From: a virus
Taxonomy: Duplodnaviria; Heunggongvirae; Uroviricota; Caudoviricetes
Length of the DNA: 33,187 bases
IMG/VR virus record: IMGVR_UViG_2529293223_000010
Direction: 5' to 3' (one strand)
Shown: positions 5,148-32,031 of the stretch, piece after piece
Position numbering within the stretch: position 1 is the first letter of the stretch
How the letters are laid out: the number at the start of each line of letters is the position of its first letter
Position numbers and translations under genes: made by a program
Notes under the pieces: generated by a model
Databases searched by the model: none
The model's input: only the letters and a program-made list of their open reading frames with translations
Told to the model about the DNA's origin: nothing

Positions 5148-5190
5148 TGAGGTGTACTGGCAATAGCGGACACTACCATTTGTTCTTTTT

Positions 5191-6009
5191 TTAAGCAGCC
5201 ATCTGATGATATTTTTCCCTGAAGGCTGCCGGGGAGATATTCCCCAGACGAGAGTGACGACGCTGACGATTGTAGAAAATCTCAATGTATTCCCGTATTA
5301 CTGAGATGGCTTCATCCCGGTTATTAAAACGATAGTGGCTCAGGCTCTCATTTTTCAGCGTTCCCCAGAAGCTTTCCATCGGAGCGTTGTCGTAACAGTT
5401 ACCTTTACGCGACATTGATGTTTTCAGACCAAACTGCTCCTGTATGACCCGGTAATCGTATGCGCAGTACTGTGAACCTCGATCAGAGTGGTGGATTAGC
5501 CCGGCAGGTGGGCGCTGGCTCCTGAGCGCCATAAACAGGGCTTTACCTGTCAGCTCTTTTGTCATGCGCTCTCCCATGGCGTAGCCGACAATTTCGCACG
5601 TATAAACATCTTTGATGCCAGCGAGGTACAACCATCCCTCCTGTGTGGCAACATACGTCAGGTCCGCCACCCAGACCTGATTTGGTGCTGTAGGAGCGAA
5701 CGTCTGGTTCAGCAGATTTGGCGCAACTGGCAGATTGTGGTTCTGGTTCGTAGTCGCTCTGAACTTGCGTTTCTGCTTACAGCGTAGCCTTAGCTCCTTA
5801 CGAAGACGTGCCAGTCGGTCACGACCAACGATGATGCCATTCTCTGCCAGCTCCGTCTGGAGCCGCCGGGTTCCATATGTTTCGCGAGTGCGGATATGTG
5901 CCACCTTAATCTCCAGTTTTAGCCGCTCATCACTTTGTTTTCTGTCTGAGGGTTCATGCTGTACCCGGTTGTAATAACCGCTCCTGGATACACCAAATAC
6001 CTGACACAT
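5191..6009 (-). CDS. IS600 OrfB (DDE catalytic domain; made as OrfAB fusion by -1 frameshift); differs from copies 2 and 3 at two residues
   Basis: 272-aa ORF in -1 frame relative to orfA; reads YYNRVQ and TTNQNHN where copies 2/3 read YYNWVQ and TTNPNHN. Confidence 0.9.
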   Translation of the reverse strand: MCQVFGVSRSGYYNRVQHEPSDRKQSDERLKLEIKVAHIRTRETYGTRRLQTELAENGIIVGRDRLARLRKELRLRCKQKRKFRATTNQNHNLPVAPNLLNQTFAPTAPNQVWVADLTYVATQEGWLYLAGIKDVYTCEIVGYAMGERMTKELTGKALFMALRSQRPPAGLIHHSDRGSQYCAYDYRVIQEQFGLKTSMSRKGNCYDNAPMESFWGTLKNESLSHYRFNNRDEAISVIREYIEIFYNRQRRHSRLGNISPAAFREKYHQMAA

Positions 6010-6044
6010 CGCTTCAATGGGAAATTGTTGTCGCCATTGTTCGA

Positions 6045-6347
6045 TTAACGCGTATTTTTCAGCGACTCCTGTGCAAAATACGCTGTTGCTTTTTTTAATA
6101 TATCTCGCTCAAGGCGAGCTTCATTTAACGCCTTACGCAGTTGCAGAATTTCAGATTCCAGTTCAGCCACCGTGCGGGAACCAGGAGTACCGAGCCCTTT
6201 TCTGGCGGCGGTAACCCATTGTCCTAAAGTGCCTTCAGGAAGGGATAATCGGGAAGCGCCTTCACTGATCGAAAGTTGATTTTCAAGAACCGTTCTGACA
6301 GCTTCGGCTTTGAACTCTTTAGAGTAACGTTGGGTTTTTCTGCTCAT
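6045..6347 (-). CDS. IS600 OrfA (HTH DNA-binding component of transposase)
   Basis: 100-aa ORF identical across the four copies. Confidence 0.9.
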   Translation of the reverse strand: MSRKTQRYSKEFKAEAVRTVLENQLSISEGASRLSLPEGTLGQWVTAARKGLGTPGSRTVAELESEILQLRKALNEARLERDILKKATAYFAQESLKNTR

Positions 6348-6411
6348 TATTAGCTCCTTCTGATGCCATTCTATTTCAGGAAGGAGTGTCCGTTAAACTC
6401 AGGCTACCTCA

Positions 6412-7079
6412 GTGTCATTTTGCGCGGCTGCCAGTGTATTGAGCAAATTACCAACACCGGAAAAATAAGGCGAATAAGTGCTTTCTGCCGCCTTTAACTC
6501 TCCTGGAGTTGCCTGCAATTCATCAGCATTTTTCTGTTTCTCTACAACATTACGAGCCATCATGCCAAAGCCAAACGGCCCGGCAACGCCCATAACCGCA
6601 AGTTTTGTCCCCCACGATACGGTGGTTTTAAACAGGTTGTTTAATCTCGAAGTGGTCGTCCGTAGCGTAGAATTGATCTGCTTGTAAGTTTTCAGCGTCT
6701 GTTTGGCGTTTTTCCCCAGCCCGCTGAGGTACTTATCAAACATCGTTTCGCCGCGACCTTTATAGTTGCTCACCAGCGAATCAGGTGTTTTCCCGCTGCC
6801 AACAAAGCGCCATTTTTCATCCCTTAAACGTCCATCAGTGGAAGCAGCCAGAACTGGCGCGGGTGAAGATGGTTTCCTGGGAGCCTGATTGGCTTCTCCG
6901 CCTGTGGTTGTCTGCCAAGAGCCACCTCCCGGACCGGTATTTGAAGGTATTTTAAGCGGCGTACCGGCAGGGCCAATCATCAGTCCGTTGCGATACTTTT
7001 CAAATATCGCCTCAAGCCGCCTGAGGTGTTCTTCATTAACATCCAGCGTCAGAACTGGCATCTGGTTACCAGCCATCAC
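6412..7079 (-). pseudogene. putative tail tape measure protein, N-terminal fragment truncated by IS600 copy 1
   Basis: ORF 6399..7079 runs directly into the IS600 terminus at 6411; position after the tail chaperone; hydrophobic GVAGPFGFGMM segment. Confidence 0.45.
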
Positions 7080-30239: not shown

Positions 30240-30767
30240 CTGAGGGATCCCCACAAAATTACTGCTAATAAACCAGCACCATATTTCGGTAGGTTCTGGA
30301 CAGATGGTTTAGAACTGTGCTCAGTACTGTTCGTCTTAAAATAAGTGGCGAGTGTCGAAGAACATTCTTCGCTAACGTCAGATATGAGATAACCCGCCGG
30401 GATTTAATGCTGTTAGCCTGATATTTCAGGTGTAACCCTTTATTTTCAGCGTGATAACCGAGTAACCACATTACGATAGTGCTCAACGTTGCCAGCAGAC
30501 TCAGAACCAGAATTCTTCCTGTTGAACGACTTTTGCTGGCCCGAAGACCAAATCCGAAGCGCCCGTTCTTTTCATCACGAAAGTTTTGCTCTATCTGCAT
30601 TCACCGACTGTATAACTTGATGATTTCTCGCGCTCTGAAGTCATTTGTACTGCTGAAGATCAACCAGGCTTCTTTTGCTGATTTGCTCTGTTCTTTGTCT
30701 GTTTTGTTTAAACCACTCTGACCTTTCGAACGTTTCTTTTTTCGCCCTTTTGCCGATTTCTTATAGG
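30240..30767 (-). mobile_element. IS10-like (IS4 family) remnant: inside-end-like terminus plus the 3' third of the transposase gene; rest removed at IS600 copy 4
   Basis: Terminus ctgagggatcccc at 30240.. resembles the recalled IS10 inside end; downstream ORFs encode the IS10-type C-terminal region. Confidence 0.55.
30265..30767 (-). pseudogene. IS10-family transposase C-terminal fragment with an in-frame TGA inside the YREK catalytic signature
   Basis: ORFs 30601..30783 and 30265..30600 are in the same frame separated by one TGA: ...REIIKLYSR-stop-MQIEQNFRDEK...; the stop sits where the Y-x2-R-x3-E-x6-K motif needs Arg. Confidence 0.55.
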
Positions 30768-30810
30768 TGAGGTGTACTGGCAATAGCGGACACTACCATT
30801 TGTTCTTTTT

Positions 30811-31629
30811 TTAAGCAGCCATCTGATGATATTTTTCCCTGAAGGCTGCCGGGGAGATATTCCCCAGACGAGAGTGACGACGCTGACGATTGTAGAAAAT
30901 CTCAATGTATTCCCGTATTACTGAGATGGCTTCATCCCGGTTATTAAAACGATAGTGGCTCAGGCTCTCATTTTTCAGCGTTCCCCAGAAGCTTTCCATC
31001 GGAGCGTTGTCGTAACAGTTACCTTTACGCGACATTGATGTTTTCAGACCAAACTGCTCCTGTATGACCCGGTAATCGTATGCGCAGTACTGTGAACCTC
31101 GATCAGAGTGGTGGATTAGCCCGGCAGGTGGGCGCTGGCTCCTGAGCGCCATAAACAGGGCTTTACCTGTCAGCTCTTTTGTCATGCGCTCTCCCATGGC
31201 GTAGCCGACAATTTCGCACGTATAAACATCTTTGATGCCAGCGAGGTACAACCATCCCTCCTGTGTGGCAACATACGTCAGGTCCGCCACCCAGACCTGA
31301 TTTGGTGCTGTAGGAGCGAACGTCTGGTTCAGCAGATTTGGCGCAACTGGCAGATTGTGGTTCGAGTTCGTAGTCGCTCTGAACTTGCGTTTCTGCTTAC
31401 AGCGTAGCCTTAGCTCCTTACGAAGACGTGCCAGTCGGTCACGACCAACGATGATGCCATTCTCTGCCAGCTCCGTCTGGAGCCGCCGGGTTCCATATGT
31501 TTCGCGAGTGCGGATATGTGCCACCTTAATCTCCAGTTTTAGCCGCTCATCACTTTGTTTTCTGTCTGAGGGTTCATGCTGTACCCAGTTGTAATAACCG
31601 CTCCTGGATACACCAAATACCTGACACAT
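30811..31629 (-). CDS. IS600 OrfB (one residue differs from copies 2/3)
   Basis: 272-aa ORF; TTNSNHN where copies 2/3 read TTNPNHN. Confidence 0.9.
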   Translation of the reverse strand: MCQVFGVSRSGYYNWVQHEPSDRKQSDERLKLEIKVAHIRTRETYGTRRLQTELAENGIIVGRDRLARLRKELRLRCKQKRKFRATTNSNHNLPVAPNLLNQTFAPTAPNQVWVADLTYVATQEGWLYLAGIKDVYTCEIVGYAMGERMTKELTGKALFMALRSQRPPAGLIHHSDRGSQYCAYDYRVIQEQFGLKTSMSRKGNCYDNAPMESFWGTLKNESLSHYRFNNRDEAISVIREYIEIFYNRQRRHSRLGNISPAAFREKYHQMAA

Positions 31630-31664
31630 CGCTTCAATGGGAAATTGTTGTCGCCATTGTTCGA

Positions 31665-31967
31665 TTAACGCGTATTTTTCAGCGACTCCTGTGCAAAATA
31701 CGCTGTTGCTTTTTTTAATATATCTCGCTCAAGGCGAGCTTCATTTAACGCCTTACGCAGTTGCAGAATTTCAGATTCCAGTTCAGCCACCGTGCGGGAA
31801 CCAGGAGTACCGAGCCCTTTTCTGGCGGCGGTAACCCATTGTCCTAAAGTGCCTTCAGGAAGGGATAATCGGGAAGCGCCTTCACTGATCGAAAGTTGAT
31901 TTTCAAGAACCGTTCTGACAGCTTCGGCTTTGAACTCTTTAGAGTAACGTTGGGTTTTTCTGCTCAT
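31665..31967 (-). CDS. IS600 OrfA
   Basis: 100-aa ORF identical to other copies. Confidence 0.9.
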   Translation of the reverse strand: MSRKTQRYSKEFKAEAVRTVLENQLSISEGASRLSLPEGTLGQWVTAARKGLGTPGSRTVAELESEILQLRKALNEARLERDILKKATAYFAQESLKNTR

Positions 31968-32031
31968 TATTAGCTCCTTCTGATGCCATTCTATTTCAGG
32001 AAGGAGTGTCCGTTAAACTCAGGCTACCTCA

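Follow-up and report, generated by a model that had tools for sequence, protein, structure and literature searches.

In a Shigella prophage remnant that carries ipaH3, each of four IS600 copies stands at a deletion junction. We consider it very probable, at about 85%, that each copy arrived by an insertion that made a target-site duplication (TSD) and that DNA adjacent to it was lost afterwards. The mechanism is read from end states only.

The prophage and its setting

The window, meaning the whole stretch of 33,187 nt that was analysed, is what remains of a single prophage of Rac-SA53/pPE4 type, integrated between pphA and yebY; the host genome resembles that of Shigella boydii 5216-82. Its left end matches yebW-pphA-ipaH3 and its right end int-yebY of the EIEC prophages at the same locus; EIEC genomes were used solely as references. 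Related copies of the prophage in other Shigella assemblies have 99.4-100% identity to it across the shared parts. The flanking genes and the main prophage genes away from the IS600 copies are the following.

277..937, (-), pphA, chromosomal left flank; two overlapping ORFs here, 657 bp and intact in EIEC strain VL40
1676..3391, (+), ipaH3, intact, type III secretion effector and E3 ubiquitin ligase (Pfam LRR_TTSS, NEL)
3571..4194, (-), DUF4376 gene, intact, tail-fibre C-terminal or assembly-type
7141..13464, (-), tail tube, tail sheath and head genes of Rac-SA53/pPE4-type phage, 96-99.8% identity, collinear
16911..19320, (-), terminase large and small subunit genes, both intact
32846..33187, (-), yebY, chromosomal gene at the right flank of the prophage

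The pphA gene appears to be a frameshift pseudogene, because it is split into two overlapping ORFs. The ipaH3 gene, which RefSeq annotates in DNA of 99% identity, lies as cargo at the end of the prophage where the tail fibre is encoded. Remnants of IS4 and ISSfl1 and pseudogenes are also present in the window, as is typical for Shigella genomes with IS decay.

Phages Rac-SA53 and pPE4 share 96-97% identity with the structural and terminase modules. The EIEC prophage that carries ipaH3 between pphA and yebY is 98-99% identical at its integration site, in its integrase and at its ipaH3/tail-fibre end. The nin/lysis region has about 95% identity to the EIEC prophage and 83-95% identity to the two phages. 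The EIEC prophage at this locus has a different tail module, so the prophage family is mosaic. The window copy has lost about 25 kb and is no longer able to function as a phage. What is left is an immobile prophage in which ipaH3, the lysis and terminase genes and part of the head and tail genes are preserved.

Structure and identity of the IS600 copies

Repeat search and direct comparison delimited four copies.

5148-6411, (-), IS600 copy 1, 1264 bp, flanks cgg/gtg, no TSD
14822-16085, (+), IS600 copy 2, 1264 bp, flanks acc/gtg, no TSD
25400-26663, (+), IS600 copy 3, 1264 bp, flanks cca/ata, no TSD
30768-32031, (-), IS600 copy 4, 1264 bp, flanks agg/tgc, no TSD

Any two of them differ by 0-3 SNPs. 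Copies 2 and 3 have the same sequence; copy 1 departs from it at two IS positions (445 and 668) and copy 4 at one (667). Each element is complete to the last base, running from TGAGGT... to ...ACCTCA, and in all four both orfA (100 aa) and orfB (272 aa) are open. The slip site AAAAAAAG (A7G) occupies IS positions 316-323, orfB lies in the -1 frame, and the ORF products match Pfam HTH_Tnp_1 and rve. The elements are 99.1-99.7% identical to ones whose transposase carries the RefSeq label 'IS3-like element IS600 family transposase'. Length, imperfect terminal inverted repeats that begin with TG and end with CA, overlapping orfA and orfB with a slip site, and this near identity assign them to IS600 of the IS3 family. 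Direct comparison thus bears out the preliminary description, which had reported four copies of exactly 1264 bp with orfA, orfB and the slippery site intact.

Flanks and target-site duplications

A simple IS600 insertion has a direct target duplication of 3 bp, rarely 4 bp, adjoining both of its ends. Such a TSD was found at 11 of 16 other distinct IS600 copies inspected and at none of the four in the window (one-sided Fisher P = 0.026, from a small sample that is not independent). The 11 are clean, simple insertions, and wherever their flanks were checkable they split a contiguous target. Those checked among the five copies outside the window that have no TSD adjoin other IS, prophage remnants or deletion junctions. 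In the window, neither mark of a simple insertion was found at any copy: all four lack the duplication, and the flanks of none are contiguous in relatives. The mismatched triplets had already been read correctly at all four copies, and no match was found within the window when left and right flanks were compared in IS orientation, or when flanks were cross-compared directly and as reverse complements.

The IS boundaries on which these comparisons depend are correct, because TSD-bearing copies elsewhere abut the same TGAGG...CCTCA ends. In an EIEC lysozyme gene, for instance, a GTG duplication directly abuts TGAGG...CCTCA, and the empty site corresponds to positions 22021-22070 of the window. 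Misplaced boundaries were considered and rejected: shifts of up to 3 bp gave 3-mer matches at chance level only and cut into the IS ends. The preliminary description had named matching duplications after a correction of 1 to 2 bp as the result that would overturn it, and no genuine duplications appeared over this wider range.

The deletions at the four copies

In alignments to relatives, the deletion endpoints abut intact IS600 termini. The gene and IS fragments at the junctions are as follows.

4145..5147, (-), tail-fibre N-terminal-domain gene, 5' 401 bp missing, left edge of deletion 1
6412..7076, (-), tape-measure-position gene, 5' fragment of about 216 codons, right edge of deletion 1
13506..14821, (-), IS4, one end short by 110 bp, left edge of deletion 2
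16086..16893, (-), portal gene (Phage_portal_3), 5' fragment, 269 of 478 codons, right edge of deletion 2
25234..25399, (-), DUF1367 gene, 3' part, Pfam profile positions 146-198, left edge of the 18-bp deletion
26664..27079, (-), DUF1367 gene, 5' part, Pfam profile positions 1-139
30240..30767, (-), ISSfl1, IS4-family, 3'-terminal 528 bp, left edge of deletion 4
32032..32453, (+), prophage integrase gene, 3' 422 bp (140 codons), right edge of deletion 4

The preliminary description had proposed a deletion or an IS-to-IS event at each copy and had suggested comparison with related prophages. That comparison identified a missing segment at every one of the four, relative to intact or less decayed copies of the prophage. 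Seven of the eight truncated partners it listed were right. The exception lies at copy 3, where its two nin-region genes are a single DUF1367 gene; its 'IS10-like' transposase is indeed truncated but belongs to ISSfl1, an IS4-family element.

At copy 1, about 10 kb is missing from the tape-measure to the tail-fibre gene, including baseplate and tail-fibre genes. This size is only an estimate, because no reference links this tail module to this tail-fibre gene. The full tail-fibre gene has 1407 bp in VL40, and the window match ends at 5147. On the other side, the tape-measure-position gene, labelled as a lytic transglycosylase domain protein in relatives, breaks at 13137/13138 of reference L029; CP026836 and JBPYCC01 have this gene and the baseplate genes undamaged, with 99.5-99.8% identity up to the breakpoint. 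The assembly JARKNR01 has copy 1 with the same flank pairing.

At copy 2, 4312 bp is missing from the portal gene into IS4 (L030 415-4726). The portal gene is intact in relatives (478 aa). In JARKNR01 the whole portal gene is present along with the genes downstream and a full-length IS4 (1426 bp, with a 12-bp TSD), and IS600 is absent there. Copy 3 stands in place of exactly 18 bp within one DUF1367 gene, and these 18 bp are present in five references.

At copy 4, the early region from the ISSfl1 fragment to the integrase gene is missing, a loss of about 12 kb when judged against phage pPE4. UYIS01 has a complete ISSfl1 at this position, together with early genes. In CP026845, CP026846 and JARKNR01, an IS600 borders ISSfl1 at nearly the same point and less DNA is gone from its opposite flank, and the window is short by a further 2860 bp compared with its closest relative, CP026846. 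The losses at copy 4 therefore appear to be nested and stepwise. The ISSfl1/IS600 junction in the window is offset by 2 bp from that in the three other assemblies, so the series could instead reflect two independent insertions. The two junctions fall at AGGTGTA, a heptamer of ISSfl1 that is identical to IS600 IRR positions 3-9. CP026846 also has two directly oriented IS600 copies 0.8 kb apart beside the integrase gene, one of them with an ATG TSD. The ORF that fuses IS600 to the integrase gene has an exact protein match with the start chosen by annotators and none from the first ATG.

Gene order and the reality of the junctions

All eight IS600 junctions recur in an independent assembly of S. 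boydii 5216-82, and some are present in short-read contigs. The flanks are paired in the same way in the one other assembly that has all four IS600 copies. A search of 5,426 complete E. coli genomes for the window junctions found none. All five window segments are collinear with Rac-SA53, pPE4 and FDAARGOS_943 in both order and orientation.

These observations bear on two ways in which the mismatched flanks could arise with no loss of DNA beside an inserted copy. Inversion between opposite IS600 copies, in the window or elsewhere, would exchange flanks; two copies face each way, and IS-mediated rearrangements are well known in Shigella genomes. The preliminary description had noted that inversions are possible, which holds in principle, but the present gene order is that of the reference phages and the pairing is the same elsewhere. 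The flanks give no cross-match in either orientation, and DNA is demonstrably absent relative to near-identical relatives. Inversion as the source of the mismatches is contradicted, and we regard it as highly improbable. Still less probable is an artefact, whether from misplaced boundaries, from TSDs eroded by mutation or from misassembled repeats. The source is a draft assembly and 3-base duplications are short, yet the boundaries agree with those of TSD-bearing copies, shifting them yields chance matches only, and the recurrence of the junctions in independent assemblies and short-read contigs contradicts misassembly.

How the deletions may have arisen

The process would begin with an ordinary IS600 insertion that made a 3-bp duplication. 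DNA beside one end of the element would then be lost, in one or several steps. The agent would be either the transposase, acting through adjacent deletion, or RecA, recombining the element with another IS600 in direct orientation. Both routes would take away one copy of the duplication. Adjacent deletion is favoured at copies 3 and 4, because of the loss of 18 bp at the former and the apparently nested losses at the latter. At copies 1 and 2, adjacent deletion and IS600-IS600 recombination are indistinguishable.

The large losses at copies 1, 2 and 4 might alternatively be due solely to RecA-dependent recombination between two direct, TSD-bearing IS600 copies, which would leave behind a hybrid element with its two flanks derived from different insertions. 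IS600 is dense in this prophage family, with at least nine distinct insertion sites, and the direct pair in CP026846 is exactly the substrate that such recombination requires; IS-IS recombination has also been credited for deletions in Shigella (PMC7373316). None of the eight window flanks, however, was found beside an IS600 that still has its 3-bp duplication in about 10 related assemblies, no IS600 lies within the interval at the copy 2 locus in its pre-deletion state, and recombination is not a reasonable account of the 18 bp missing at copy 3, for which two insertions separated by 18-21 bp would be required. Recombination as the sole route is thus a tentative alternative that we consider unlikely, and it deserves more weight than a single-step origin, in which IS600 entered a DNA break or inserted aberrantly during deletion and no duplication was ever made. 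The same missing intermediate, a TSD-bearing IS600 at any of the junctions, speaks for that single step, and events of this kind have been proposed for IS5 and IS481 by Ngan et al. (PMC11708052). In the same study, all 14 cases of IS150, an IS3-family element, were multi-step; few relatives of the present prophage were sampled, and copy 4 apparently has a less-deleted relative. We therefore think a single step improbable, and insertion followed by loss remains the preferred reading.

A more specific version, for which the odds are similarly long, holds that IS600 makes a TSD-less insertion and a deletion in one aberrant step, with a hot spot at sequences like its own ends. If this were true, the transposase and not homologous recombination would drive recurrent prophage erosion across Shigella lineages. 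Targeted insertion of IS911, reportedly described by Loot et al. in 2002, offers a model for breakpoints at IS-end-like sequences. What suggested the idea was GGCTACC, within the 18 bp missing at copy 3, together with AGGTGTA in ISSfl1. In an ungapped scan, the 20 nt on either side of each of seven ancestral breakpoints were set against 5000 random 40-mers, and P was at least 0.23 at every breakpoint. At copy 3, the match of the closest relative to the IS600 end is weaker. The idea is not supported as a general rule, and the end-like sequence at copy 4 is an unexplained detail only.

Comparison with known systems

IS600-marked erosion of a prophage is a well-known and ordinary part of Shigella genome decay, and no new kind of element or mechanism is revealed here. 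The near-identical Shigella prophage remnants provide a worked example, junction by junction, of how IS600 dismantles a prophage while ipaH3 is kept. In this prophage, the absence of a TSD reliably flags a deletion junction. According to Hawkey et al. 2020 (PMC7373316), IS600 is among the five IS that have expanded in all Shigella species; it interrupts genes there and is credited with deletions and rearrangements. That survey counts insertions genome-wide, whereas individual junctions and this prophage are not resolved in it. IS629, which like IS600 belongs to the IS3 family, is accompanied in E. coli O157 by the IS-excision enhancer IEE, with excision and 'more extensive' deletions beside the IS (bioRxiv 10.1101/2023.06.07.543989). 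IEE mainly removes the IS, whereas IS600 stays intact in the window.

The closest parallel is IS150 in the E. coli long-term evolution experiment. TSD-less copies of this element were traced to insertion followed by adjacent deletions (PMC11708052), which ranged from 14 bp to 48.9 kb and extended over time (Ngan et al. 2024, PMC11708052). Both IS150 and IS600 are IS3-family elements with orfA and orfB that make a 3-bp TSD on simple insertion, and both have TSD-less copies at deletions of a few bases to tens of kb. The IS600-marked losses appear to be natural counterparts of the small and of the stepwise adjacent deletions of IS150 in laboratory evolution. In contrast to the IS150 experiment, IS600 is known here from the end states of natural isolates, and the order of insertion before loss is inferred, not observed. 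The 14-bp deletion of IS150 resembles the 18-bp loss at copy 3 in size, and the deletions of IS150 grow stepwise from a resident copy, as apparently do those at IS600 copy 4.

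A prophage remnant with four intact IS600 copies

The left end of the window carries yebW, a probably frameshifted pphA and ipaH3 in that order, and its right end carries a truncated integrase gene followed by yebY. In EIEC strains the same pphA-yebY site holds a prophage of about 43 kb, and the window therefore contains a single prophage remnant in full. Rac-SA53 and a record named Actinobacillus phage vB_Apl-pPE4 each show 96-97% identity to its head, tail and terminase modules and 83-95% identity to its nin region. The segments between the IS elements all keep the order and orientation found in these two phages. 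The preliminary description had considered inversions between opposed IS copies possible; judged from the assembled sequence, the present arrangement contains none. The vB_Apl-pPE4 record (PP818812.1) also shares the integrase adjoining yebY, and its 96-97% identity spans about 10 kb in two blocks of Escherichia/Shigella prophage. Actinobacillus looks doubtful as its host.

Repeat search and direct comparison delimit four IS600 copies of 1264 bp each.

IS600 copies in the window
5148-6411, minus strand: copy 1
14822-16085, plus strand: copy 2
25400-26663, plus strand: copy 3
30768-32031, minus strand: copy 4

Copies 2 and 3 are identical in sequence, copy 1 has two base differences and copy 4 has one. 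All four preserve orfA (100 aa) and orfB (272 aa, in the -1 frame), and IS positions 316-323 hold the slip site AAAAAAAG; the original account had already noted intact orfA/orfB and the slippery site. The products match the Pfam families HTH_Tnp_1 and rve, and the identity of the element to others with a RefSeq-annotated IS600 family transposase is 99.1-99.7%. The flanking triplets first listed (cgg/gtg, acc/gtg, cca/ata, agg/tgc) are correct; in IS orientation, copies 1-4 read cac/ccg, acc/gtg, cca/ata and gca/cct. Comparison of the abutting flanks revealed a target-site duplication (TSD) in none of the four copies, and within the window the left flank of one copy never matches the right flank of another.

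Misplaced boundaries do not account for this result. Matching 3-bp duplications after boundary correction would have contradicted the preliminary description, but shifts of up to 3 bp gave chance-level matches only and amputated the conserved TG/CA termini. EIEC FDAARGOS_943 has an IS600 copy in its lysozyme gene with GTG abutting TGAGG...CCTCA at both ends; the uninterrupted lysozyme gene of the window represents the empty site for that insertion. Among 16 other distinct IS600 copies from Shigella genomes, 11 have a TSD (ten of 3 bp, one of 4 bp) and split one contiguous gene or sequence wherever the flanks could be checked; the checked subset of the remaining five adjoins other IS elements, prophage remnants or deletion junctions. 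The difference between 0/4 and 11/16 gives a one-sided Fisher P of 0.026 in a small, non-independent sample. Misassembly of the source (GCA_002968245.1) is excluded because S. boydii 5216-82 (GCA_000211975.2) has all eight junctions on a single contig and short-read assemblies have some of them.

DNA missing at each junction

Exact-protein look-ups identified copies of this prophage, at differing stages of decay and 99.4-100% identical over the shared parts, in other Shigella assemblies. Comparison with these relatives located a lost segment at each of the four junctions. Each IS600 copy thus marks missing DNA, with IS termini intact to the last base, in agreement with the original view of deletion or recombination rather than simple insertion.

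The tail-fibre N-terminal-domain gene at copy 1 has lost its first 401 bp, and about 216 codons are left of the gene in the tape-measure position, whose annotated product is a lytic transglycosylase domain protein. In CP026836 and JBPYCC01 the sequence runs on beyond this breakpoint, covering the remainder of the latter gene as well as the baseplate genes. The figure of about 10 kb for the deletion is an estimate, since this tail module and this fibre gene are not joined in any reference. At the copy 2 locus, JARKNR01 lacks IS600. Its portal gene is full-length (478 aa) and is followed by three genes, one of which carries an IS110-family element, and by an entire IS4 of 1426 bp flanked by a 12-bp duplication. 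The window is missing 4312 bp of this stretch, including 110 bp of IS4. Copy 3 lies within a single DUF1367 gene (Pfam profile positions 1-139 and 146-198 on its two sides), not between two nin-region genes as first proposed; the tail fibre, tape measure, IS4, portal and integrase were correctly named as truncated partners. Here the window lacks 18 bp present in five references (CGACTACCATCAGGATAA in the closest relative).

The truncated element beside copy 4, earlier called IS10-like, is ISSfl1. UYIS01 has it complete, adjoining a DUF7167 gene, and has the early genes too. In CP026845, CP026846 and JARKNR01, a TSD-less IS600 (GTG/CAC) is fused to the same 528-bp ISSfl1 fragment, with its other flank near DUF1187. 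CP026846 further retains the integrase gene in full, along with another IS600 that does have a TSD. Relative to CP026846 the window is short of a further 2860 bp and stops within the integrase gene, of which 140 codons are kept; the total loss relative to vB_Apl-pPE4 is about 12 kb.

At the IS600-ISSfl1 junction (window 30760-30775; about 7040 in records L050/L051 and about 1977 in L022), the window is 2 bp shorter than these three relatives, in which both IS flanks read AGGTG toward the IS. Intact ISSfl1 reads AGGTGTA at this site, which equals positions 3-9 of the IS600 right end. The difference could reflect two independent hot-spot insertions, or one insertion followed by dinucleotide slippage. 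A scan for breakpoints at sequences resembling IS600 ends was not significant (P at least 0.23 at each breakpoint).

Order and mechanism of the losses

As a by-product, the related assemblies put the deletion events in order. The copy 1 junction is shared with JARKNR01 and is therefore the oldest of the four; the same comparison places junctions 2 and 3, and junction 4 in the form seen in the window, in the 5216-82 lineage.

How the losses came about is inferred, and two routes to such losses are established. In adjacent deletion, DNA beside a resident IS600 would be lost; alternatively, two direct copies would recombine. The direct IS600 pair in CP026846 supports the second route. The 18-bp loss at copy 3 ends exactly at an IS terminus, a result that two copies would not readily give. 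The copy 4 series looks like stepwise extension from one anchor. Copies 1 and 2 are compatible with both routes. Neither a TSD-bearing intermediate nor a parental second IS600 was found at any of the eight flank positions among about ten relatives. A one-step TSD-less event is a possible but less economical explanation.

Other changes in and around the prophage

An independent, larger IS600-marked deletion occurs in the same prophage in other Shigella lineages (CP026824, CP027027 and PSSP01). It begins just past the portal gene and ends in the tail fibre, where its breakpoint and that of the window are 149 bp apart; its IS600 is itself split by another IS. ORF6N-domain paralogues at 23566-24123 and 28080-28760 form direct repeats (78-88% identical). 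CP026845 and JARKNR01 lack the DNA between them (window 24402-28280, including the copy 3 site), consistent with recombination between the paralogues.

In the 1676-4194 region, ipaH3 is intact though most of the phage is lost. In other Shigella genomes (records L039-L041), lambda-like (gpJ/Lom) prophages also end with an ipaH gene preceded by an identical DUF4376 protein of 207 aa, so the tail-fibre-end/ipaH cassette moves between unrelated prophages. Between the terminase and lysis genes lies a TrkH/TrkG-like potassium transporter gene of low GC (39-44%; 19320-20827), which recalls trkG of the Rac prophage. It consists of two overlapping ORFs (180 and 339 aa; 485 aa in CP026836) and is probably frameshifted cargo. 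Four clustered, phage-borne tRNA genes downstream of the antiterminator region (23048-23358) are Gly-TCC, Thr-TGT, Arg-TCT and one with a CAT anticodon called as Met; RefSeq lists the equivalent EIEC prophage tRNAs as Ile, Arg, Thr and Val. The flanking serine/threonine phosphatase gene pphA (277-937) comprises two overlapping ORFs (120 and 110 aa), is a single 218-aa gene in EIEC VL40, and is probably a frameshift pseudogene. Upstream of the window on the source contig, rsmF (yebU; record L004, 6507-7785) is called in two pieces, as in S. boydii 5216-82, and encodes 481 aa in another Shigella assembly; it looks like another pseudogene near the prophage.

Comparison with known IS-mediated deletions

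The observation is real and the reasoning behind it sound. The 18-bp loss at copy 3 and the copy 4 series fit the documented behavior of IS150, which like IS600 belongs to the IS3 family and produces small and stepwise deletions without TSDs. Across three populations of the long-term evolution experiment, deletions of 14 bp to 48,894 bp accompanied 14 of 83 IS events; a duplication was absent from all 14, each of which went back to an earlier insertion and to later deletions that often became larger (PMC11708052). The same paper provides experimental documentation of IS3-family copies that lack a TSD and lie at deletion junctions. In all Shigella, IS600 is among the five IS elements that have expanded, and deletion and gene loss caused by IS elements are well documented there (PMC7373316). 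What the four junctions show is a process already known, at work on a type of prophage remnant that is also known.
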